Below the pieces are notes generated by a model. The model did not search any database. It saw nothing but the letters and a program-made list of their open reading frames with translations, and was not told where the DNA came from. The position numbers and the translations under genes are program-made. Of a stretch of DNA of 53,226 nucleotides, positions 110 to 53,226 are shown piece by piece. Origin of the DNA: Candidatus Brocadiia bacterium (GTDB taxonomy: Bacteria; Planctomycetota; Brocadiia; CAIUPP01); assembly GCA_050015075.1 (NCBI GenBank), contig JBEKCB010000035.1:1-53226 (forward strand), read 5' to 3'. How positions within the stretch are numbered: position 1 is the stretch's first letter; every line of letters begins with the position of its first letter.

Positions 110-208
110 CCCGGCGGCGTTCCGGCCTTGGAGGCGCCTATGCCGCCGAGCGAGGCGTCATTAAATTCACCCAGGTCGCCGCCGCTGCGGCAGCTACCAG
201 GGGTAAAA

Positions 209-286
209 ATGGTCGGGGCGGTCGGCCATGTACCCCGCAGATGGAGTTCAGCGCCAAGGACCTGGCGGTTCCCGGCGTAACGAACC
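209..286 (+). repeat. att/recombinase-tail-like repeat, copy 1 (homologous to 46838-46917)
   Basis: First 58 nt differ from 46838-46895 at 7 positions; both copies end in CGGCGTAACGAACC. It begins TGGTCGGGGCG, the reverse complement of a tRNA-Pro 3' end (CGCCCCGACCA). Confidence 0.8.
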
Positions 287-529
287 GCCGCCCTGCCACT
301 CCGCAATTTTTTCCTAACCTGCGATAGACGATTGCAAAAAACGCCCCGGGACAATTTTCGTTCCGTTTCAGCGGCGGCCGGCGTCTTGGAACCTGCTCTT
401 GACTGGCAGACCCGCAGAGAATTGCTTGACGGAGTTGACCCCAGCTATCAGAATACGACATCTGATGCCTGACCGCCGCGTGGAAGTCGGCCCTGGCCGG
501 TGAATCGTCCATTGCACAAGGCAAGAATC

Positions 530-3937: not shown

Positions 3938-4909
3938 TCAGTCCTCCCGGATTTCATCCAGGAGAACCTCTCGGCCGCCTTCGTCACGGCTGCGAATGCC
4001 GGCGATGAGAATTTTCATCAACTCCACCGTTTCCGACCAGGGGAAAGGGCGATTCCCGGTGCGCAGGAAATTGACGAACGCCATCATCTGTCCCTTGAAG
4101 GCGAAGAAGGTGTCCTCGCAGGCGGCGTTCAGCGTGTTCCGGGTGCCCATCGCCGTCAAGCGGCAGAATCCCCCATACATGTCCTTGCTGGCGACGAGAA
4201 TCACGTCGGCGCCGCATCGGTGCTTGCAGTGGACGATGTTGCGGTCGCTGCTGCCGGTATTGCGGACGGAAATATATCCGGGTCCGAGGATCGGGTACAA
4301 CCCTTCCGCGGCGTGAATGCCGTACCGCTCCCAGGACTTCGGCGTCGTGTTGACCAGGAAGCGCGGCTCGCCGATTTCGCTCAGCCGGCTCTTGACCGCC
4401 ATGAATTCCTTCGCGTACCGCATGCCGCTGGAGGTGAGGATGTTGCGGCCCTCCCGGACCCAGCGGTGAAAGGTCTTGAGGTCCGGCTCGCTGTCGCAGA
4501 GCGGTTTGTCAATGAAGACCGGCAGGCCGGCCTCGACGAACGGCCGCGCTCGCTCGACGTGCTCCCAGCCCTTGTCGGTCGCGATGAGCACCGCGTCCAC
4601 CGCGCCGATGACGTCAGCGGGCTTCTTCACCACGTTGGGAATCCGGGAGCACCTGGCCGCATGCTCGGCGGTGAAACCGCCGTCGCCGATGCAGCAGATG
4701 TGCGTGACCTGCGCGCCGGGGATGCCCAGGGCGTCCGGCGGCTGCCGGTTCAGATACTGAGGAATGGCCGCAAAGGGACATTCGCGGGTCATCAGGTCGC
4801 GGTCGTACCCGTTGAAAATGGCGCTCCAGGAATAGGGATGCCCATTGCCCTCCGTCATGCCCAACATCGCCAGTCGGATGTTGTCCGGTTTGGGAACCAG
4901 TGCGCCCAC
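3938..4909 (-). CDS. Gfo/Idh/MocA family oxidoreductase
   Basis: RLAMLG..GNGHPYSW, VDAVLIAT, PVFIDKP, SSGMRY; GTG start after GGGAG. Confidence 0.8.
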   Translation of the reverse strand: MGALVPKPDNIRLAMLGMTEGNGHPYSWSAIFNGYDRDLMTRECPFAAIPQYLNRQPPDALGIPGAQVTHICCIGDGGFTAEHAARCSRIPNVVKKPADVIGAVDAVLIATDKGWEHVERARPFVEAGLPVFIDKPLCDSEPDLKTFHRWVREGRNILTSSGMRYAKEFMAVKSRLSEIGEPRFLVNTTPKSWERYGIHAAEGLYPILGPGYISVRNTGSSDRNIVHCKHRCGADVILVASKDMYGGFCRLTAMGTRNTLNAACEDTFFAFKGQMMAFVNFLRTGNRPFPWSETVELMKILIAGIRSRDEGGREVLLDEIRED

Positions 4910-6834: not shown

Positions 6835-7899
6835 TCAAGACTTCATTCGAGGTTCGACGATCTTGCCTGTCCGCGCGGACCTGTACGCGGCTTCCATGAC
6901 GATGCAGTTCCACAGGCCGTCCTCGGCGGGCACCGGCGCGGGCCGGCCTTCGAGGATCGCCTGGGAGAACTCCTCGATTTCGCCGCGATAGGTGTTCTTC
7001 GGTTCGAGCGCCATCGGCTGGTAGGCAGCATGGTCCTGCGCCTGCTGTTGCGCGTCATAGCCTTTGCCCGCGCCGAGGATGCACTGGCGCAGGTCACCGC
7101 CCGGTCCCTGTCCGAGGCTGTACCTGCCTTTGACCGAGCCCTGCGAGCCGTAGACCTCGAGGACGAACTCGCTCGCCTCGTCCGGGATGGCGAAGCTCAC
7201 GTCCACCACGCCGGCGGCGCCGTTCTCGAACTCGATCAGCGCGACGCAGGTGTCCTCGACCGGATATCGGTGCACGCGGTTGAACGTGCGCGCGGTGATC
7301 TTCTTCGTGCGGCCGAAGAACATCTCCATCAGGTCCACCACGTGCGAACCCATATCCATCAACGGGCCGCCGCCGCCGAGTTCCGGCGCCTGGCGCCACG
7401 CGCCCGGGATCGGCGGATACCAGCACGTCATCTGTCCGCGCGCCATCACCGGCGTGCCCAGTGCGCCGGAGCGGATCATCTCCTGAATCTTGCGATGATA
7501 GACATTGAACCGCATCATGAACCCGACGCCGAGCAGCACCCGGGCCTTCTTGCAGGCGGCGATCATCTTGAGGATATCGCGGGACTTCAGAGCGAGCGGC
7601 TTCTCGCACAGGACGTGTCTGCCCGCCCTGGCCGCGGCGATGACGTGTCTCTTGTGCAGGTAGTTCGGCGTCGCGACGTAGACCGCCTGGACGCCGGCCG
7701 TGCGCAGCAATTCCCTCTCGGTCGCGCAGCACTTCGCGCCGAACTTCGTCGCCGCGTCCTGCGCGCCGGCCTGGTCCGCGTCCATCAGCGTCACCAACCG
7801 GGCGTTGGAAGCGGCCATGATTCCTTCCGGAATCGTTCGTCGTTTCGCGATCCCGCACGCGCCCAGGACACCCCAGCCGATCTTTCCCTCCGGCCGCAT
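6835..7899 (-). CDS. Gfo/Idh/MocA family oxidoreductase
   Basis: GVLGACGIA, YVATPNYLH, HVLCEKP, GGGPLMDMGSH; ATG at 7899 after GAGGA. Confidence 0.9.
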   Translation of the reverse strand: MRPEGKIGWGVLGACGIAKRRTIPEGIMAASNARLVTLMDADQAGAQDAATKFGAKCCATERELLRTAGVQAVYVATPNYLHKRHVIAAARAGRHVLCEKPLALKSRDILKMIAACKKARVLLGVGFMMRFNVYHRKIQEMIRSGALGTPVMARGQMTCWYPPIPGAWRQAPELGGGGPLMDMGSHVVDLMEMFFGRTKKITARTFNRVHRYPVEDTCVALIEFENGAAGVVDVSFAIPDEASEFVLEVYGSQGSVKGRYSLGQGPGGDLRQCILGAGKGYDAQQQAQDHAAYQPMALEPKNTYRGEIEEFSQAILEGRPAPVPAEDGLWNCIVMEAAYRSARTGKIVEPRMKS

Positions 7900-17735: not shown

Positions 17736-17800
17736 CGGGGCAACTCACATTTGTTTGGACCGTCCGTCACCGTCATAGTGCCGTTTCTGGCCGTGTTCCT
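17736..17800 (+). repeat. Cassette left-flank motif, copy A (homologous to 45863-45927)
   Basis: 44/65 ungapped identity by manual alignment; translates RGNSHLFGPSVTVIVPFLAVFL versus RGNWRKFEPSATTVVPFVSLFL. Confidence 0.65.
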
Positions 17801-17815
17801 CGACGCGTATTCCGG

Positions 17816-18349
17816 CTAAACTTCAAGGTCACGGTCCTCTTCAAGATCCTTGATATAGCAATCCAGATTGCTGGAGATCTTCTCGAAGACCGCAGGCAAA
17901 TAGGGCGCCAGGTCTTGGAAGGACGGATGATCGCCAACAGGACCCCCGTGGTAGGAACGCATGTGCTCAAGAATCGCACGGCGTTCCTTTTCCGAAATCA
18001 TTTCCATCGGATCACGTTCCCGGTAATCATGGTAAGGTGACAGATGGATGAATGAACAACCGAAAAGGTAAACTGATCGCGTCCAGGATTGAAGCTCATT
18101 GGCCAAGTCAACCATTTCTTTGTCGGTTACGCGCCACTTGCGGCCTGCAACGCAATCCTCGATCAACTCATCCCGACGCTGACGATCCGAAATGGATAGC
18201 AGATAAATTACCCGCACCATCGAATCAAGTTCCTGCCGAAGGATGCTGACAATTTGGCCGTGAAGCCCTGAGAGGCGTTCCACTGCCTTACGGTGTTCGT
18301 CTGATCGCTGCCGCACTTGTCGGCAGAAAACCGCAACATGGTTCGCCAA
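17816..18349 (-). CDS. Hypothetical helical protein, HEPN/DUF5677-like; cassette cargo
   Basis: Lower GC than flanks; TTG start at 18349 behind GGGAGG; SILRQELDSMVRVIYL and YLFGCSFIH motifs. Confidence 0.6.
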   Translation of the reverse strand: MANHVAVFCRQVRQRSDEHRKAVERLSGLHGQIVSILRQELDSMVRVIYLLSISDRQRRDELIEDCVAGRKWRVTDKEMVDLANELQSWTRSVYLFGCSFIHLSPYHDYRERDPMEMISEKERRAILEHMRSYHGGPVGDHPSFQDLAPYLPAVFEKISSNLDCYIKDLEEDRDLEV

Positions 18350-18437
18350 TCCGCTCTCCTCCCGTGCAAGTTCGAACCGTTCGTCACGAACCGGCGAATT
18401 GTAACTCACTGTCTGGCATGAAGAAAGCCCTGTGCCT
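18347..18437 (-). promoter_or_regulatory. Shared cassette leader, copy A (promoter -10, SD and TTG start); homologous to 46721-46811
   Basis: 69/91 ungapped identity with the last 20 nt identical; minus strand carries TACAAT, GGGAGG and CGGATTG. Confidence 0.8.
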
Positions 18438-18530
18438 TGCAGGTGACGTCACCAGAAGTGCTTCGCCGCAAAGGCATGGCCGGAGCCGAATTTCAGGTAT
18501 CGCTCGAATGGACTCTGCGCGCGCGGAGTT

Positions 18531-18965
18531 TCACTCCGAAGTCCAACTGGTGATGTTATCATCCGCGCCATCCTGGCCGCTCGGCCCGAAGGAATGGAGG
18601 TCGAAGCCGTCCGTGTTGTGCGTGCCGGGGCAGGCGTAAACGTAAGGATTGCCCCAGGGGTCATTCCGGACGGCTTTCTGGACGTAAGGGCCATGCCACC
18701 CGGTCAGTCCGCCGGGAGCGACGCTCAGCGCGCCCAGTCCTTCGGCGGAGGTCGGGTAGCGGCCGTTGTCCACCTCGAAGGCGCTGAGCGCCGTGCCTAA
18801 TAGTGAGATGTCCGTCGTGGCCTGCACGAACTTGGCCTGCGTTGCGCGACGGGCGTACAGCGGCACCACCACCGACGCCAGCGCGGTGAGGATCACCAGC
18901 ACGAGCAGCAGCTCGATCAGCGTAAAGCCCTGTGCCGCGCGACGTCGAATCAAGCGAAGTTTCAT
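18531..18965 (-). CDS. gspG: Type II secretion major pseudopilin GspG (orphan)
   Basis: GFTLIELLLVL prepilin site, FEVDNGRYPT..GL.AL, W.GPY, DPWGNPYVY, SFGPSGQDG.DDNI. Confidence 0.9.
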   Translation of the reverse strand: MKLRLIRRRAAQGFTLIELLLVLVILTALASVVVPLYARRATQAKFVQATTDISLLGTALSAFEVDNGRYPTSAEGLGALSVAPGGLTGWHGPYVQKAVRNDPWGNPYVYACPGTHNTDGFDLHSFGPSGQDGADDNITSWTSE

Positions 18966-27908: not shown

Positions 27909-28994
27909 ATGTCCGGCCTTCGCGCGGATCCATACTCGTCCGCTCCGGCTGCGAGCGTCGTTCCCGAGTCATTCTTCGAGACTCTTCGCGACACGTTCGA
28001 GCAAGCGGGCGCGCGGGCGGGATCGTCGGAGCGCTGGTTCACCATCGGCGGCGAGACCGTGAGGCTGCGCTTCGCCGGTCCGGCGCTGCAACCGCTGATC
28101 GTGCCGGCCCTGGAGCACCTGGCCGCCGGCCCTGCGGATGCGCCGGCGCTGACGGTCTGCTTCTGGGACAGCGCCTCGACGGACACACGCATGCCGGCCC
28201 CGCCGTGGCCGACCACGGCTTACGGCCAGCGCGGCGAGATCGCCGGCTACAATACGGAGCGCTTCCGCACCGTCTATCAGCACGGCGTCAACGCGCTCCA
28301 CATGTTCGATGCGCGCAGGCGCACCGCGCTCTACTGGGTGGCCAGGCCCGGCCAGATACCGTACTGGGAGCGCAGTTTCCCCATGCGCACGATCCTGCAC
28401 TGGTGGACGCAGGGGCGGGCGCTGCAGTTGATGCACGCCGGCGCGGTCGGCGGACCGTCGGGCGGAGCGCTGATCGCCGGCAAGAGCGGTTCGGGGAAGT
28501 CCACGACCACGCTCGCCTGCCTCGATGCCGGGATGATGTACGCCGGGGACGACTACGTCCTCGCTCGTGTTGAGCCCGAGCCGCTGGTCCATAGCCTCTA
28601 CGGCACGGCCAAACTCGCGCCGGACAACCTGCGCCGCTTCCCGCATCTACGGCGGTTCGTGAGCAATCCCGACAACCTGGAAAAAGAGAAGGCGATGATC
28701 TTTCTGAAGGACGTCTGCCCCGCGCAGTTGGCGCGGGGCTTTCCCATCCGCGCCCTCCTGCTCCCGCGCGTCACCGGCCTTCGCGACACGACGCTTCGGT
28801 GCGCCACGCCTATCGCCTGTCTCGAAGCCCTCGCCCCGACCACGATCCTACATCTTCCCGGCGCCAGCCATGACGCCTTCGGGAAAATATCCCTGCTTTC
28901 CAGGAGCGTCCCGGGATATATTCTCGATGCCGGCACGGACTTGGAGCAGATACCGCAGGTCATCCGGAGGCTTCTCGAAGAGGGACCGTCATGA
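27909..28994 (+). CDS. HPr kinase-related serine kinase
   Basis: MHAGAV, Walker A GKSGSGKST, GDDYV. Confidence 0.8.
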   Translation: MSGLRADPYSSAPAASVVPESFFETLRDTFEQAGARAGSSERWFTIGGETVRLRFAGPALQPLIVPALEHLAAGPADAPALTVCFWDSASTDTRMPAPPWPTTAYGQRGEIAGYNTERFRTVYQHGVNALHMFDARRRTALYWVARPGQIPYWERSFPMRTILHWWTQGRALQLMHAGAVGGPSGGALIAGKSGSGKSTTTLACLDAGMMYAGDDYVLARVEPEPLVHSLYGTAKLAPDNLRRFPHLRRFVSNPDNLEKEKAMIFLKDVCPAQLARGFPIRALLLPRVTGLRDTTLRCATPIACLEALAPTTILHLPGASHDAFGKISLLSRSVPGYILDAGTDLEQIPQVIRRLLEEGPS

Positions 28995-44397: not shown

Positions 44398-45810
44398 ATG
44401 CCGAAGACCGAGTTCCCCAAGTCTTTCCTGTTCGGCGCGGCCACTGCGGCCTATCAGATCGAAGGCGCCGTTCATGAGGACGGCCGGGGAGAGTCCATCT
44501 GGGACCGCTTCTCCCACAAGAGCGGGACCATCAAGAACGGCGACACCGGCGATGTGGCCTGCGACAGCTACCACCGCGTTGACGAAGACATCGCCCTGAT
44601 GAAGAACACGGGCCTTCAGGCCTACCGGTTCAGCATCGCCTGGCCGCGGGTTGTCCCCGACGGCGACGGCGCGGTGAATCCCAAAGGCCTGGACTGGTAC
44701 TCGCGCTTCGTGGACAAGCTGCTGGCCGCCGGAATCCGGCCCTTCGCCACGCTGTATCACTGGGACCTGCCGCAGGCGCTGGAGGATAAGTACGGCGGCT
44801 GGCGCAGCCGCAAGACAAGCGAGGCCTTCGGGCGATACTCCGAAGCCGTCGTCCGACGACTGGGCGACCGCGTCAAGGACTGGATGCCGATCAACGAGAT
44901 GCCCGCCGTCATCGTCGCCGGCTATGGCTGGGGCCGTCACGCGCCCGGCATTGTCGAGACCCGCGCCGGCCTCAACCGCATCCAGCACAACGTTCTGCTT
45001 GCCCACGGCTACGGCGTCCGCGCCGTCCGCGAGTCCGGGCGGCGCGGCTGCCGGGTCGGCACCGCGATCAACCCGCGCTGCTATGTTCCCCTGTGCGACA
45101 GCAAGCCCGACCATGTCGAAGCCGCCGCCAAGGCCTTCGCCCACTTCAACGGCCCCATCCTCGACAGCATCACGTTCGGCCGCTACCCCGAGAAGTGGAT
45201 CGCCGGACTCGGCGCCGATGCTCCGGCCGTCGAACCGGGCGACATGGAACTGATCTCCTCCCAGTGCGACTTCATCGGCCTGAACATCTACAGCGGCTCC
45301 TACGTCCGCCCGCCGTCGGAAGCTCCCGGCGCGAAGGCCATCCCGCCAGGCAACCTGGGGATTCCGAGCCTCGCCCTCGACCCGACGCCGGCCGATGGAT
45401 TCCTCGAAATCGCAATGCCCGCAGGCTATCCCAAGGCCGGCGGCATTAACATGCTTCCCCAGGCCATTTACTGGGGCGTGCGACACGCCGTGCAGGTCTA
45501 CGGCTATAAGAAGGTCTACATCACCGAGAACGGCTGCCCCTTGCAGGATCAGTTGGTCAACGGCGAAGTCCAGGACCTGGAACGCGTCCTGTACTATCGC
45601 CTGCATCTCCAGTCCGCGGCGCGGGCCGTGGCGGAGAAACTGCCGCTCAAGGGCTACTTCATCTGGTCGCTGCTGGACAACTTCGAATGGAGCGTGGGCT
45701 ACAGCGAGCGGTGCGGCTTCCACTACGTGGACTACGCCACCCAGAAGCGCACCCCGAAATTCAGCGCCGGATACTACGCCGCCTGTATCGCCGCGCGGCG
45801 AGTGGTGTAG
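44398..45810 (+). CDS. Beta-glucosidase, glycoside hydrolase family 1
   Basis: FLFGAATAAYQIEG, YRFSIAWPR, TLYHWDLP, INE acid/base, ITENG nucleophile, WSLLDNFEW. Confidence 0.95.
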   Translation: MPKTEFPKSFLFGAATAAYQIEGAVHEDGRGESIWDRFSHKSGTIKNGDTGDVACDSYHRVDEDIALMKNTGLQAYRFSIAWPRVVPDGDGAVNPKGLDWYSRFVDKLLAAGIRPFATLYHWDLPQALEDKYGGWRSRKTSEAFGRYSEAVVRRLGDRVKDWMPINEMPAVIVAGYGWGRHAPGIVETRAGLNRIQHNVLLAHGYGVRAVRESGRRGCRVGTAINPRCYVPLCDSKPDHVEAAAKAFAHFNGPILDSITFGRYPEKWIAGLGADAPAVEPGDMELISSQCDFIGLNIYSGSYVRPPSEAPGAKAIPPGNLGIPSLALDPTPADGFLEIAMPAGYPKAGGINMLPQAIYWGVRHAVQVYGYKKVYITENGCPLQDQLVNGEVQDLERVLYYRLHLQSAARAVAEKLPLKGYFIWSLLDNFEWSVGYSERCGFHYVDYATQKRTPKFSAGYYAACIAARRVV

Positions 45811-45858
45811 AGGGGCAGCGGCGGATTGCAAGCTAATGAGTTGCAAGCCGTTTCAAGC

Positions 45859-45927
45859 TGGTCGGGGCAACTGGCGCAAGTTTGAACCGTCTGCCACAAC
45901 CGTTGTGCCGTTCGTATCTCTATTCCT
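45859..45927 (+). repeat. Cassette left-flank motif, copy B (tRNA-Pro-like att core plus recombinase-tail-like codons)
   Basis: TGGTCGGGGCAACTGG...TTTGAACC resembles the reverse complement of a tRNA-Pro acceptor/T-arm; homologous to 17736-17800. Confidence 0.65.
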
Positions 45928-45934
45928 GCTGCCA

Positions 45935-46723
45935 TCAGGGCCGAACATCCAGCTGGGGTGGTAATTCGTCCTGCAACTCCTCCGCGCGACTGCGCGCGGC
46001 AAGAGCTTGTAGTTGGATTATCATGAGCCATTCGCAGAGCCACTTGAGAAATCCAGGAGTTGCAACAATCACGCCGCCTTCGTCATCACGAAAAGCAATA
46101 CCCGCGATAGACATGGAGAACGTACCGTGGGAAAGCGCATTCCTGATCCGGCGCACATAATCAGCATTCAGGAGTTTCCGGATGCGACCACAGCACGGCT
46201 TGCGAGCCGCTGCACCTTGCGCAATCAAGCTCGATAAAGGACCCTCGCGCATGTAAACTAACGCCAAGTAGAGTCGCAGCACCAAGGACCCCACCATTGT
46301 AATGCGAACCCGTACCGGAAGCGGGAGGTCCATCGCTGCGTCGAAAGGTGTGCGTGGTAGTCCGTTCCGGCGCTGATCGAGCGAGGCCGCCAAACTAAAC
46401 CAGAAAACTCCGTTTGCAAGGTCATCGAAATCATCGAATCGCGCCGCTGGCGAAGTAGTTAACTCTCGCAACAATTCTTCTGAAGTGAGGCGACTTGTGA
46501 GATCGTCAAGAATCTCACGGCAAACCCCGAATTGCCTGCGCACCTCTAAGTCATCGAGAACAGCGTGCAGATCGTTGATATCCTGAACAGGGACGATCAG
46601 ATTTGCAGGGAGAACACCTGCGTCGAAGCCCTCGGACGGCCCCTCATCGGCAACGCCATATGTGGAATAGAACCGTCGGAGGAGGTCGACAACATCTCTG
46701 ACTTCGGCGTCTCCGTTTGTCAA
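45935..46723 (-). CDS. HEPN-domain-like protein; cassette cargo
   Basis: C-terminal RRIRNALSHG (RxxxxH); lower GC; TTG start behind GGGGAGG. Confidence 0.65.
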   Translation of the reverse strand: MTNGDAEVRDVVDLLRRFYSTYGVADEGPSEGFDAGVLPANLIVPVQDINDLHAVLDDLEVRRQFGVCREILDDLTSRLTSEELLRELTTSPAARFDDFDDLANGVFWFSLAASLDQRRNGLPRTPFDAAMDLPLPVRVRITMVGSLVLRLYLALVYMREGPLSSLIAQGAAARKPCCGRIRKLLNADYVRRIRNALSHGTFSMSIAGIAFRDDEGGVIVATPGFLKWLCEWLMIIQLQALAARSRAEELQDELPPQLDVRP

Positions 46724-46811
46724 TCCGGTTGCCTCCCCTGCAAGTTTGAACGGTTCTGCTTTGACGGACGCATTGTAACCCGCTTGCAGAAATGAAGAAA
46801 GCCCTGTGCCT
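46721..46811 (-). promoter_or_regulatory. Shared cassette leader, copy B
   Basis: 69/91 identical to 18347-18437; TACAAT, GGGAGG, TTG. Confidence 0.8.
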
Positions 46812-46827
46812 CATCGGCACAGGGCTT
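46799..46827. terminator. 12-bp perfect hairpin between the cassette leader and the att-like core
   Basis: AAGCCCTGTGCC-TCATC-GGCACAGGGCTT. Confidence 0.65.
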
Positions 46828-46837
46828 CTGATGCAAC

Positions 46838-46917
46838 ATGGTCGGGGCGGGCGGGCATGTAGCCTACAGGTGGAGTTCACCGCCAAGGACCTGGCCCGCT
46901 TCGCGGCGTAACGAACC
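46838..46917 (+). repeat. att/recombinase-tail-like repeat, copy 2 (homologous to 209-286)
   Basis: Matches 209-286; translates GRGGRACSLQVEFTAKDLARFAA-stop with no upstream gene body. Confidence 0.8.
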
Positions 46918-47361
46918 ATCGGTCTACCCTCCGGAAGTATCGGTTGACCCATCAAGGATGGTCCCAGAATACCAGTGACGCTTTAGCGACCTCTTTCGCG
47001 GGAAGAACGCTGGGAGGAATATGGATATTTAGCCTGTCGGAGAGGGAGAAAGAGAGAGCGAGGAACGGTGCGAAGAACCGTGCGGAGACCATATTTTCCG
47101 CAACACGGCGCCAGATCGAGAGGCGGAGCTTCCGGGCGCGTCTTGCATTTCCTTTTTACGTAAGAGGTCTCAAAAGATCGGGAAGGTCTGTAATTCAATA
47201 TTCTCGGAAACGCTCAGTGCGGGGCTTTCAGCCGCGATGAGTAGAGGGGTACGTGGTGGTTTCGCCGAGGGGGCTGGTTCCGCCGGCGGCGCTGGGGCAG
47301 AAAAAACGAGCGGTTCGACTTCGCGGAGAGAGAAAACTCGGCGCCCATCGCGCGTACGAAA

Positions 47362-47745
47362 CTACTTTCGTCGCAGGTGGTCAAGCTGAACCCACTCGCC
47401 GGCCGCATCTTTGAATTGCCAAAACGTCCAGCCATTAACATGCCGCCCGATGGCCGCCTTGCCGGCCCACGACGGGGAGGTATAGATGGTGCCGTTGAAG
47501 TATGCCCTGCCGTCGCCGCGAACTTATGCGTTGCCCGAATCTTGAACCACTTCTTGACGTAGGGTGCCAGTGTGGGTTCGCGCGACGTGTTTTTCTCAGC
47601 GGTCCTTCTGGTTGCCTGGCGGCGCTGGCGCACGCGATGGTCACGCCCACCGAGGGCGTTGCGCCGTTCTGCGTCTTGTGCTCGTTTCACCGCCGCGTCC
47701 AGTCGCGCCCACAGGTCGAAGGCATGAGGTAGTCTGCCCGTTGAG
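47362..47745 (-). pseudogene. Frameshifted remnant of a RAMA/DUF4357-like domain gene
   Basis: EPTLAPYVKKWFKIRATHK in one frame continues in another as RGDGRAYFNGTIYTSPSWAGKAAIGRHVNGWTFWQFKDAAGEWVQLDHLRRK-stop (SPS..A / NGW.FW / L..LR signature). 5' end uncertain. Confidence 0.6.
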
Positions 47746-48065
47746 GCGTTCTAGAGGCCGTTTTCGGCCCCGAAATCACACGAAAAGCTCCCACAACAGG
47801 GAATTCTCCAAAAAATTAGACCCCAGTAATCATTGGGGTTTGTGAAAATTTGGAAAAAATCCGCGTCCGTGCCTTTGCTCGTCCCCCGAGAAAAAACCCC
47901 AGCAAAACCGCTACATATGAAAAACGCCCCCGCGAAAACCCGCGTAAACATTGGCTGAAATATATGTTGAACGCGCCTTGAACTTTGCCCCAGGGGTATG
48001 GGGGTGGAGTTACGAGGCGAGCGCCTCATTCCGCCCCCGAGAGCATTCCTGTAGGAGGGCGTCGG

Positions 48066-48656
48066 ATGAGTGAGAACCTGGTCGTACCGGAGCGGCACGT
48101 CACCGCTCCGGAGGCAGGCGTCGGGCAGGGCGCGGCTGTGGATGTTCAGGCCGCTGCCGTGGCAGACTCGCTGGCGTCGAGCGCTGCCGCGAAAGCTCCT
48201 GGCGAGCCGTCCGCGAGATCGGAGAGGCGCTCTAACCGTGACTGGTTCCGCGCGTTGACCGGGCGTGAGGCGGACGCTGCCAAGCCGGTGGGCGTCGTGT
48301 TGGTCATCGATTCCAACGACAGCGACGACAGTGATGACAACGATGACAACGACGACAGCGATAACACTGGCGCAGTCAGCGAATTCCATACCCTTTGCGA
48401 TACTGAATGGGGTGACAAAGAGGTTCTCGACCTCCATACGGCGTCGGACGCCCAGCGGGCTGCGTGGCAAGAATTCCTCAAACGTTTTGAAGGCACGGAG
48501 TACATTTCGTTCCCCGCTGTCGCGGCTCTCTTGTTCGGCCACCTCGGCTGTTACCTGTGGGACGCGAACACGGATGAGCACATTTATAGCAATGTTGAAC
48601 TAGCTGACGTATTGATGATTGGTTTCAGCTGGGGCCGGGCGGCTGCAGGTGCGTGA
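48066..48656 (+). CDS. Hypothetical protein with an Asp-rich low-complexity insert; probably mobile-element derived
   Basis: ATG at 48066 after AGGAGG; DSNDSDDSDDNDDNDDSDN tract. Confidence 0.5.
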   Translation: MSENLVVPERHVTAPEAGVGQGAAVDVQAAAVADSLASSAAAKAPGEPSARSERRSNRDWFRALTGREADAAKPVGVVLVIDSNDSDDSDDNDDNDDSDNTGAVSEFHTLCDTEWGDKEVLDLHTASDAQRAAWQEFLKRFEGTEYISFPAVAALLFGHLGCYLWDANTDEHIYSNVELADVLMIGFSWGRAAAGA

Positions 48657-48879
48657 TTGCTGGACCAAGGCCGGCGCGGTGTGCGTTTCCCGCGTCCGGC
48701 CGGCGGTCGGCGGCAAGCGCCATCTGAACCCGTGACGGAGGTGCAAGACGCAGAGCACGGCTCGTCCCCGACGGCGTGAGACTCCCCCATGGACATGGAT
48801 ATGGACACGGTCGCACCGGGACGGAGGATGCTCCTGCGTCCACGAGAGCTATCATTAACTAATGTGGAGCGAGCGCGCC

Positions 48880-49599
48880 ATGTCGAAAAGTAATCCCCCT
48901 GATGATGCGCGAGATGAACCCGCTGCGTTGAACACAATCACCGACCAACGAGTCCAGCCCGTCACGGTGCAGGAAGTCCAACCCACGGCCGACGAAGCTG
49001 AATCAAGGGCCGGTAACGAACGACTTGAAGCCCAGTCGCTCGCCGGCGGGTCTCTGGACTTAAACGCGCTGCGACTGCCGCAGAACTTCAACCAGATGGC
49101 CGGCGTCAGGAAGGTTCTTCAAACGGTGCCGGTGAGGAAACCCCACCGACAGGAATGGGTCTGGGTTCGACCCGACGAGGGCTGGCGCTTGGCGACAGCC
49201 ATAGTCGAAAACCACGATGACCACGAGGTATACTTGGTTCTGCCGAACATGTTGGAGACCCTGCTCGCGGAATGGGTGCCATGCCTGCTGGTGACGACGC
49301 AGACGCGCGGCGGGACGGTTTTCCTTTGGCCAGTCCGCCTGCCCAACGACGATAAGCGCCCCAACGCCTGGAACCAGAGCGCGCTTGAGATCGTGCAGGG
49401 GCACGCTGGCCGCTGGATTCGCGTCGCCTCCAACATGGAACTCGGCGCCTACGAACTCTCCCTACCCCAGGGCGAAATTCCACCCCCGGTCTGGCCGGAC
49501 GTGGATTTCCAAACGCTGGTTAACCTCGCCTTCAAGGGCAAAATCATCGGCTCGCCGAACCATCCGGTCGTGAAGCGCCTGCGTGGGCTGGGGGCGTAA
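48880..49599 (+). CDS. Conserved hypothetical protein of prophage/integrative-element type
   Basis: LRLPQNF..VRKVL..VPVRKP...FLWPVRLP...NAW..SA...WIRV.SNM..GAYE...P.WP...HPVVKRLRG resembles a family recalled from phage-like replication modules; not verified. Confidence 0.65.
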   Translation: MSKSNPPDDARDEPAALNTITDQRVQPVTVQEVQPTADEAESRAGNERLEAQSLAGGSLDLNALRLPQNFNQMAGVRKVLQTVPVRKPHRQEWVWVRPDEGWRLATAIVENHDDHEVYLVLPNMLETLLAEWVPCLLVTTQTRGGTVFLWPVRLPNDDKRPNAWNQSALEIVQGHAGRWIRVASNMELGAYELSLPQGEIPPPVWPDVDFQTLVNLAFKGKIIGSPNHPVVKRLRGLGA

Positions 49600-52844: not shown

Positions 52845-53226
52845 GGCCTATGCCTCCACCTCGCGTGGGATCAAACCCCCTGAAGCGATAACATCAGTCG
52901 CCATGAGGGCGAAAGGCGCAACTCTGTTTCTGTTCACTTGGCACCCCGTCATCCCCCCTGATGAACGTCGGAATGCTGCCATGCCCCGGGCGATACTTTA
53001 CCAGAACGGACTGACAAACGGGTGACATTTTCGTCTCGAAAAGCGACTGCTATTCGGTGCTGGGCTGTTTACAAGGAGCGGACTGATTGTGGCGTCGCGG
53101 CAGCGAGCCACAATCCGTGGGATGCTGCTTCTGGGGATGCGGAAATGCAATACGGACGACGTTCCGCCCTTATAGCCGCCGTGCCAACATGATACGTACG
53201 TCGCCCCCCCCCCCCCCCCCCCCCCC

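Follow-up and report, generated by a model that had tools for sequence, protein, structure and literature searches.

Unrelated genes in a shared frame at tRNA-Pro ends: candidate miniature integrative cassettes in a Candidatus Brocadiia bacterium

The stretch of DNA analysed here (henceforth the window) is the whole of contig C35 (53 kb) from the 66-contig, 4.64-Mb genome of a Candidatus Brocadiia bacterium (G000; 93.6% complete), whose lineage within Planctomycetota is known from metagenome-assembled genomes (MAGs). It carries two unrelated minus-strand genes, at 45935-46723 and 17816-18349, that sit in the same non-coding frame; we refer to the cassettes around them as the 46k unit and the 18k unit, respectively. 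We propose, with a probability of about one half, that both genes are cargo of lineage-restricted miniature integrative cassettes that dock at tRNA-Pro 3' ends, and the best reading of their make-up is that such cassettes have no recombinase of their own and would be moved in trans. Besides G000, the comparisons below rely mainly on G001 (a congener), G002 (from the same family) and G031 (from another family).

An earlier, sequence-only reading of this DNA had described two unrelated low-GC minus-strand genes with homologous flanks, and this description is real. Upstream of the two genes, with the TTG starts as anchor, 69 of 94 nucleotides (nt) are identical without a gap, a BLAST search with the 46k leader retrieves the 18k leader with an E-value of 2.3e-12, and the 20-mer ATGAAGAAAGCCCTGTGCCT has exactly two copies in the window (0 expected). 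Downstream, 45 of 67 nt are identical, again ungapped, with the flanks anchored on the core (GTTCAAAC in the 46k unit, GTCCAAAC in the 18k unit). This 3' half is weaker alone, in that the two window tails did not match each other by short-word BLAST at E<=1; both fit a family alignment of 13 tails. The 15-mer GCAAGTTYGAACSGT occurs at exactly three window sites (18366, 45876 and 46740; 0.35 expected), a number reached in 0 of 100 shuffles. By contrast, the encoded proteins, P0001 and P0002 (real open reading frames, ORFs, of 262 and 177 codons), show no relationship to each other (BLASTP E 2.5), and their genes have GC contents of 0.551 and 0.517, respectively, vs. 0.633 for the window. The shared framework amounts to a 5' module of ~130 nt and a 3' module of ~67 nt. 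It is scarcely credible that these flanks reflect chance similarity or the plain local duplication of one gene region: the failure of the tails to find each other and the non-significance of one short repeat (see below) would fit such a view, but the cargo proteins are not homologous, the leader match is far too strong, and the framework recurs with other cargo in relatives and metagenomes, so this explanation is already refuted.

The 46k unit had also been described as bounded by direct copies of the 10-mer TGGTCGGGGC. This repeat has four exact copies in the window (45859, 46839, 210 and 28833) and, with one mismatch allowed, 14 sites vs. 7.8 expected, meaning that the 10-mer alone is not significant. 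It acquires its meaning from context, because 46839-46856 matches tRNA-Pro 3' ends and 45859 is the end of the tail. ARAGORN finds tRNA-Pro(CGG) on C23 and tRNA-Pro(TGG) on C40 of G000; 46839-46856 matches 14 nt of the 3' end of the former and 16 nt of that of the latter, which bears out the earlier claim that the ends in TGGTCGGGGC(G) are copies of a tRNA-Pro 3' end. By sequence match, the TGGTCGGGGCG repeat of that account is such a copy, the tail as a whole is a mimic of the tRNA-Pro T-loop and acceptor strand, and the leader holds a second T-loop-like core. No tRNA gene was found in the window itself, and Rfam gave 0 matches at the gathering score over the whole window (E-value mode on 45800-47300 and 1-600 returned merely implausible weak rows, which we rejected).

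A unit is 0.6-1.1 kb long. Read in the sense of its gene, it runs from a terminator hairpin through a -10-like box (GTTACAAT), ~20 nt, the core GTTCRAAC(TTGC) and a right arm (GGGGAGGCAACCGGATTGnCnAAC) into one variable ORF, which is followed by a ~40-nt left arm, the core again and TTGCGCCA-GTTGCCCCGACCA, a copy of the tRNA-Pro acceptor 3' strand including CCA. In terms of modules, the 5' one comprises the terminator hairpin or a U-tract, GTTACAAT, the GTTCRAAC core, GGGAGG and GGATTG, and the 3' one is the mimic of the T-loop and acceptor end, ending ..GTTGCCCCGACCA. The terminator of the next unit comes directly after the CCA, so units stack head to tail, and the first unit of an array comes after a tRNA-Pro gene or a relic of a tRNA-Pro 3' end. 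Direct copies of the core thus bracket each ORF (on both sides in 9 of the 9 cassettes having both ends), and copies of ..GCCCCGACCA bracket each whole unit. Conserved sequence ends within a few bases of the ORF; in the 13-tail alignment, the tail starts ~40 nt before the core, past the stop codon. The 46k unit has the following parts, in gene order:

46839-46856, minus strand: tRNA-Pro 3'-end fragment (..CCGCCCGCCCCGACCA) opening the unit, by sequence match; att-like partner of 45859-45868
46798-46828, minus strand: terminator hairpin of 13 bp with a T-rich tail, from a terminator scan and conserved in the junction alignment
46772-46777, minus strand: TACAAT, a -10-like box inside GGGTTACAAT
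46740-46751, minus strand: leader core GTTCAAACTTGC, T-loop-like; the same 12 nt stand at 45876-45887, as a direct repeat of the tail core
46715-46739, minus strand: leader right arm with GGGGAGG, CAACC and GGATTG(start)ACAAAC, the TTG start of the ORF being at 46723
45935-46723, minus strand: cargo 1, P0001, 262 amino acids (aa)
45859-45927, minus strand: tail (69 nt) of a ~40-nt left arm, core GTTCAAAC (45880-45887), TTGCGCCA and GTTGCCCCGACCA, from the 13-tail alignment

The 18k unit has the same order, except that a gene remnant stands where the 5' half of its hairpin would be:

18452-18547, minus strand: remnant of a small GIY-YIG nuclease gene, C-terminal ~32 codons, with its stop abutting the junction (tblastn with the intact G001 gene: 56% over 32 aa)
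18418-18437, minus strand: 3' half of the terminator hairpin and U-tract, an exact 20-mer in common with 46792-46811
18398-18403, minus strand: TACAAT, a -10-like box
18347-18381, minus strand: leader core GTTCGAACTTGC, CGGGAGG and GGATTG (start)
17816-18349, minus strand: cargo 2, P0002, 177 aa
17734-17800, minus strand: tail with core GTCCAAAC at 17753-17760 and end GTTGCCCCGCC

Several of these parts have counterparts elsewhere. The fragment at 46839-46856 occupies the position that intact tRNA-Pro genes hold in C23 and G031:C52, the 46k hairpin is homologous to the one after tRNA-Pro(CGG) on C23, and the 46k tail ends GGTTCAAACTTGCGCCAGTTGCCCCGACCA, its last 13 nt being the 3' end of a tRNA-Pro(GGG) half-gene in G001:C81. 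The 18k tail is more diverged than the 46k tail and matches the first tail on C23 at 85% over 55 nt. Across units, the 18-mer GGGGAGGCAACCGGATTG is identical in 9 of 14, and GTTACAAT or a variant of it (ACTACAAT, ATTACAAT, GTTATGAT or TTTATAAT) is present in 13 of 14 (the exception being L021).

These 14 are the distinct junction-leader units, four of them in G000 and the others in G001, G002, G031 and peat metagenome contigs (L022, an unrelated AT-rich false match among the metagenome stretches, and duplicates of the window, of G002 and of L023 were left out of the count). Specifically, a hidden Markov model (HMM) of the 135-nt junction places the G000 units at C35 46846-46713, C35 18468-18340, C23 2039-1919 and C13 100874-101003. 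A BLAST search with the leader gave matches in 8 of 61 relatives at E<=0.01, with full units in G001, G002 and G031; in G013, G037, G049 and G059 the match reaches barely beyond the tRNA end and hairpin. A strict leader pattern matched 4 of the 132 genomes of the class, and a reversed control pattern had 0 matches. Pattern scans further gave three stretches in two MAGs among reference genomes and 11 stretches in metagenomes (one false, L022; three identical to the window; one to the G002 locus; one inside L023), yielding six new distinct units (L018, L021, two in L023, L027 and L028). The motifs are not confined to the window: these searches with the junction and leader, akin to the model scans that the sequence-only reading had proposed for this genome and its relatives, recover the framework with other cargo, in tandem and beside tRNA-Pro genes or fragments.

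The junctions are preceded by an intact tRNA-Pro gene in two cases, by a tRNA-Pro 3' fragment in five, by the previous tail in three, by the stop codon of a GIY-YIG gene in three (one of which lies 180 nt after a tRNA-Pro) and by none of these in one; one of the first three kinds thus directly precedes 10 of the 14 units. On C23, tRNA-Pro(CGG) is directly followed by the hairpin, GTTACAAT, GTTCAAACTTGC, a 102-codon ORF and a weak tail, and then by a second ORF lacking the terminator-promoter module, with a good tail after it and one more tRNA-end repeat (14 nt). The fourth G000 unit, on C13, is opened by a 30-nt 3' fragment of tRNA-Pro(TGG). The array in L023 reads tail, cassette (GNAT), tail, cassette (GNAT), tail, each cassette with its own hairpin and ATTACAAT or GTTACAAT; in G001:C81, the 3' half of a tRNA-Pro(GGG) leads into an HNH cassette and its tail, after which an IS630-type transposase gene cuts a second junction; and in G031:C52 a single cassette, with tail and hairpin, follows an intact tRNA-Pro(GGG). 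Tandem depth thus reaches two full cassettes and a preceding tail. The IS630-type transposase genes interrupt that second junction (L002 1-545, G001:C81) and an HNH_repeat cassette (L027 440-1620).

Taking all 14 units together, the same modules surround at least 12 different cargo ORFs. Pfam assigns a family to 4 of 12 cargo proteins (two GNAT, one HNH and one HNH_repeat that an insertion sequence, IS, cuts short) and none to the remaining 8; recombinases are absent among the 12. PADLOC matched 1 of 10 cargo proteins, via a generic HNH region resembling PtuB; the possibly anti-phage cargo of the sequence-only reading is not supported by this. A larger unit in L018 (7132-11450) holds three genes (an AAA_21/AAA_23 ATPase, an HATPase_c protein and a response-regulator receiver protein) and is closed by a perfect tail; TATAAT with GGTCAAAC before it was considered as a junction and rejected, having nothing else in common with the family.

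The shared leader had been read as carrying GGGAGG and the TTG start itself. As ribosome site and start, GGGAGG..TTG does not serve every cargo. Among the 14 units an ORF starts at the TTG of GGATTG in five (46k, 18k, G001:C81, L027 and L023-2), and one more (L020/L023-1) has a possible in-frame start at this TTG; in four of the 14, however, the cargo has its own start further down (G002:C109, L028, C23-1 and G031:C52), and the junction-less second ORF on C23 retains the ..GATTGGACACAAGG motif out of frame with the ORF. Because of these downstream-start units and the out-of-frame motif on C23, the right arm must be conserved for more than translation alone. The leaders of G002:C109 and L028 have an extra ~50 nt, and the conserved GGGAGG..TTG there heads a short ORF or nothing; in G001:C133 and L018 the leader is extended in the same way, and no clear cargo ORF follows. 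Extended leaders (L018 11575-11620; L013 1590-1660; L028, minus strand, ~2290-2320; L029, minus strand, ~740-790) contain GAGTCGTGCGTCCCC and then two or three short tandem CCGGAA-type repeats, which differ between loci and may be protein-binding (arm-type) sites. A leader riboswitch or upstream ORF, considered on account of GGGGA...TCCCC pairing in some extended leaders, was dropped, as L017 and L020 do not retain this pairing. Nor is the platform chromosomally fixed, as it had been called: terminator, promoter-like box and leader come with each cassette and are repeated between cassettes (L023).

We then compared orthologous sites in the congener G001. All compared sites are variable, and none shows a clean single-cassette insertion or deletion. 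Around xer and tRNA-Pro(CGG), G000:C23 and G001:C108 align over 2.8 kb at 87% identity, and the match breaks off 4 nt past the tRNA; beyond that point G001:C108 has inverted repeats, an intact GIY-YIG gene that directly follows tRNA-Pro(CGG), and other DNA, the island ending with a tail and a tRNA-end repeat of 21 nt. At the 18k site, both neighbours are retained in G001:C96 (93% and 89%) and enclose 1.3 kb of unrelated DNA, and the block specific to G000 starts within the GIY-YIG remnant and stops ~10 nt past the tail. (This unrelated segment, which in G001 stands in place of the 18k unit, bears, at L069 (G001:C96) 4200-4300, an inverted repeat of the GGATTCCCGC..GCGGGAATCC type, resembling repetitive extragenic palindromes or miniature inverted-repeat transposable elements, REP/MITE.) After lon, tRNA-Pro(TGG) is followed in G000 (C40) by a convergent large serine recombinase gene with an in-frame stop, and in G001 by a tRNA duplication, two GIY-YIG genes and a junction. 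There, L043 (G001:C133) 6976-7860 contains two copies of tRNA-Pro(TGG) with a GIY-YIG gene between them; copy 1 has the same first 50 nt as copy 2 and then a different T-arm and 3' end, and a second GIY-YIG gene stands after copy 2, abutting the cassette junction. As for the 46k site, the gene ending at window 45810, which we take to be beta-glucosidase (GH1)-like from its C-terminal motif, is followed immediately in G001:C71 by a hydrolase gene whose ortholog in G000 lies inside C11. Directly upstream of the 46k unit (in gene sense), ~2 kb of the window (46860-48900) has no convincing ORF and a GC content of 0.55-0.57.

An enzyme that might move the cassettes was sought in and beside the arrays. 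The earlier reading had proposed to look for a recombinase or tRNA-Pro next to arrays; tRNA-Pro genes and fragments are there, and no recombinase is linked to the arrays. On the window contig, neither Xer-like nor serine-recombinase queries found a match, and neither did the integron-integrase model. Three candidates in G000 were set aside: the Xer-like gene beside tRNA-Pro(CGG), the only tyrosine recombinase in or beside the arrays, is probably housekeeping (it is syntenic in G001 though the downstream content differs); the serine recombinase on C40 was not found in G001; and a tyrosine recombinase on C61 (G000:C61:835-1638) lies on a 3.4-kb contig with no usable context. GIY-YIG genes abut 3 of the 14 junctions (the 18k remnant, and intact genes in L028 and G001:C133).

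Traces of movement were looked for in metagenomes. A stretch of the window is present in 24 runs (peat, soil and wetland), all available as contigs only, of which we examined four (X11, X14, X19 and X24); contig-only runs cannot show circles or rare empty sites, and parts that they do not cover are uninformative. Contigs of three runs have the 33-nt tail at 45859-45891 joined to other sequence on both sides, and single contigs in two runs have the junction (breaks at 46770 and 46828) joined to other sequence. These joins agree with further cassettes in the communities and are silent on excision. A contig end at 45813 (X11 and X19), right behind the stop codon of the beta-glucosidase (GH1)-like gene, was not accepted as an empty site, the match being 43 nt. 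A single RNA run covered only the conserved part of the beta-glucosidase (GH1)-like gene.

If the cassettes do integrate, a circular or linear cassette would be joined to a tRNA-Pro end or to a resident tail by a putative trans-acting site-specific enzyme, and new arrivals would land beside the tRNA, as in tandem accretion at attachment (att) sites. The crossover might lie in the ..GCCCCGACCA repeat, in which case the unit would run from terminator to CCA, or in the GTTCAAAC core bracketing the ORF, in which case it would consist of right arm, ORF and left arm; a core crossover is favoured for at least some events because of the junction-less second ORF on C23. Each cassette would be transcribed from its own putative promoter, ending at the next hairpin. 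Candidate enzymes are the tRNA-Pro-linked large serine recombinase (on C40, with a relic at the window start), a small GIY-YIG nuclease and a tyrosine recombinase. A bolder form of this proposal is possible, which we hold tentatively and as less likely than not: that we are dealing with an undescribed gene-capture system, analogous to integrons and unrelated to them, in which promoter-bearing single-gene cassettes would recombine at the tRNA-Pro T-loop-mimic core GTTCAAAC with dedicated arms flanking the ORF, tRNA-Pro serving as the primary dock and a tRNA-Pro-specific serine or tyrosine recombinase or GIY-YIG nuclease as the candidate enzyme.

Several observations weigh against cassettes that move as such, and some of them fit a different explanation, namely that the units are static relics: larger integrase-bearing islands of one family would have entered repeatedly at tRNA-Pro and then decayed and been rearranged, leaving the modules as their att-proximal ends (terminator and first promoter at one end, attR at the other) and the single genes as remainders, with no movement of cassettes. 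We consider this rather doubtful. Tandem islands separated by partial tRNAs and accompanied by decayed remnants are known, as far as the accessible text of 10.1101/2020.12.28.424599 and the definition of cis-mobilizable elements (CIMEs) in that of PMC5704250 go. Tails close not only single genes but also longer units (the three genes in L018 and, in L023, ~5 kb that is lower in GC); the G001:C108 island ends in a classic tRNA-end repeat of 21 nt; the 46k unit lies at a synteny breakpoint, with signs of rearrangement and no clean insertion; the 18k unit contains a truncated GIY-YIG gene; IS elements interrupt two units; and recombinases are linked to no array, with tblastn of the C23 Xer-like protein and the C40 serine recombinase finding nothing in any other array locus, and the serine recombinase not found in G001, G003 and G037 (in G002 and G031, only relatives 25-36% identical were found). 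Also adverse to mobile cassettes are the low copy numbers (1-4 per genome) and short arrays (<=3 tails), the outcome of a full sigma-70 scan, which called no promoter in either window unit and left just the -10-like TACAAT, and a left-flank match between own leader and own tail that is not significantly better than with other tails (permutation p 0.145, 9 cassettes). The contigs of the four runs, moreover, contain no excision or empty-site joint across the cassette; with this and with no recombinase linked, the recombinase-driven exchange of the sequence-only reading is still to be inferred rather than seen. Against the relics, islands decaying independently would not all be left with the same 130-nt front and ~67-nt back close around one ORF, as is seen in at least 12 cases with unrelated cargo; the T-loop-like core flanks the ORF in every two-ended cassette, and the second ORF on C23 stands as an insertion at a tail core, with no terminator-promoter module of its own.

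Site-specific recombination could also be dispensed with altogether: a GIY-YIG (or HNH) nuclease would cut T-loop-like sites in tRNA-Pro, and repair would copy a cassette in through the homology of its modules. This homing or homologous recombination is unlikely in our view. The GIY-YIG genes abutting three junctions are what it would predict, as are the GIY-YIG genes on both sides of the L028 cassette, the one between the two tRNA-Pro(TGG) copies of G001:C133, where the break falls at the start of the T-arm, and the one right after tRNA-Pro(CGG) in G001:C108; 2 of the 12 cargo proteins are HNH-type, and arms of 130 and 67 nt would probably be long enough for recombination. On the other hand, 11 of the 14 junctions have no adjoining GIY-YIG gene, G000 has no intact copy by tblastn, only the remnant (a finding that equally tells against a GIY-YIG enzyme for mobile cassettes), and the cleavage site of such a nuclease is not known. 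Small stand-alone GIY-YIG proteins of this size are, furthermore, common housekeeping-type proteins.

We rate the units, on their sequence organisation, as probable tRNA-targeted integrative elements with an integron-like organisation. Like integrons, they form arrays of small (0.5-1 kb), mostly single-ORF cassettes between conserved recombination-site-like repeats, carry mostly small unknown proteins and GNAT acetyltransferases, and have their array anchored at one primary site. They differ from integrons in that the anchor is a tRNA-Pro gene end and in that, whereas integron cassettes share the common promoter Pc, a terminator and a GTTACAAT box stand before each cassette in L023. In the whole of G000 (at its 93.6% completeness), the best match to the integron integrase model TIGR02249 scored 85 bits vs. 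a cut-off of 265; the C61 protein matches this model in two pieces, skipping model positions 178-240 (the IntI-specific middle part). The 13 tails have no conserved helix (RNAalifold -1.4), and by eye no RYYYAAC...GTTRRRY pair as in attC, although this is a limited test. The label "non-integron" was thus well chosen, as the three integron features examined (IntI, attC and a common Pc) are all missing.

Closer structural parallels exist among tRNA-linked elements. CIMEs are described in the accessible text of PMC5704250 as att-flanked by tRNA 3'-end repeats, without an integrase of their own and stacked via a resident att site. Like such elements and the accretion of ICESt1 and ICESt3, the cassettes fit this structural definition: direct tRNA-end repeats bound the element (46839-46856 and 45859-45868 in the window; an intact tRNA-Pro and a tail in C23 and G031:C52; the 21-nt repeat in G001:C108), and the units hold one ORF, with no integration or transfer gene among the 12 cargo proteins. 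CIMEs differ in being decayed integrative and conjugative or mobilizable elements (ICEs/IMEs) of kilobases to tens of kilobases, whereas each unit here is a single gene, set in a uniform frame that looks purpose-built, and a parent ICE or IME of these cassettes is not known. The tycheposons of Prochlorococcus, in the accessible part of 10.1101/2020.12.28.424599, integrate at tRNA genes and form tandem islands with partial tRNAs, remnants and accessory or defence cargo; our units are alike in their tandem, partial-tRNA-separated arrangement with remnants. Tycheposons differ in having tyrosine recombinases and replication modules and in being much larger; a uniform promoter-leader module is not described in that part of the preprint, and tRNA-Pro as a term has 0 occurrences in it. 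What sets the cassettes apart from both CIMEs and tycheposons is their single-gene size, the uniform expression module and the core on both sides of the ORF.

Acinetobacter plasmid dif modules are Xer-dependent and flanked by 28-bp XerC/D sites. These modules and the islands at the tmRNA gene of Dehalococcoides (integrated at the 3' end of ssrA, according to the accessible text of PMC3146451) resemble the cassettes as site-specific modules with short conserved repeats and exchange of single functions, and differ in site and enzyme. Literature searches on tRNA-site elements, integrons, Planctomycetes cassettes and GIY-YIG gave no description of this architecture, as far as the text was accessible.

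The two window cargos had been called HEPN-like, which is plausible for the 262-aa protein but unsupported for the 177-aa one. P0001 belongs to a widespread unnamed family with an invariant R..RNxxxH motif; R191, R194, N195 and H199 are invariant in 43 homologs, in agreement with the conserved Rx4-6H motif. Its structural model (pLDDT 92.6) had no Foldseek match in the PDB at E<=0.001. Among the top 50 of a wide VIA-align search are the HEPN-toxin-titled chains 8xdj_A (Z 5.4) and 7ae2_A (Z 4.9), as well as 5yep_B (Z 4.8), 1jog_A (Z 5.1) and four Las1 chains (Z 4.9-5.3), which we take to be of HEPN fold. All eight HEPN-type chains align over residues ~90-255, but every Z is below 8, which the tool rates as common for helical bundles; P0001 may be HEPN-like. 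P0002 belongs to another widespread unnamed family, for which the Atlas lead was DUF6988/DUF5677 and not HEPN. In 29 sequences its H129 is at least 90% conserved, R123, the arginine of the proposed motif, is no more than the majority residue, and R124 varies, while the invariant residues lie elsewhere (R38, D42, R46, H102 and H134). Both cargos have family members 55-75% identical in MAGs labelled as several other phyla, and each was found in G000 only (P0001 among 401 genomes of the phylum, P0002 among 132 of the class); relatives without the cargo and homologs in other phyla fit horizontally acquired accessory genes.

A further element with a tRNA-Pro-like end lies at the start of the window:

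209-306, minus strand: copy of a ~100-nt element, ending in a tRNA-Pro 3'-end-like ..CCGCCCCGACCA, followed by a relic of a serine-recombinase gene end

This copy and 46836-46936 are ~100-nt direct repeats, 82% identical and 46.6 kb apart, the only two copies in the genome, and on the minus strand both end in a sequence resembling a tRNA-Pro 3' end; they are not called as tRNA by ARAGORN and have no Rfam match, and an 89% identical copy of the element lies at G001:C133:30432-30504. Window 147-225 is 81% identical to a stretch 3' of tRNA-Pro(TGG) on C40 (G000:C40:27784-29577) and includes the last ~20 codons of the large serine recombinase ORF, which on C40 reads across the tRNA 3' end and has its in-frame stop at 28786. 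At the other end of the window, the poly-C at 53200-53226 is probably an assembly artefact.

Integrons are the only well-understood system for the capture and expression of genes one at a time. Were the units relics only, they would mark a tRNA-linked island hotspot of the ordinary kind, whose repeats happen to be unusually tidy. If, instead, they are mobile cassettes docking at tRNA-Pro ends, single-gene capture would have evolved more than once, here in Planctomycetota, whose mobile elements are poorly known, and it would be built on a mimic of a tRNA end, with expression signals brought along by each cassette. The cargo includes two widespread unnamed protein families, one of them with a HEPN-type motif, and the front and back modules would provide a signature by which accessory genes of unknown function might be fished from peat and soil metagenomes. 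Through such a system, this lineage could sample the accessory genes of other phyla one gene at a time.

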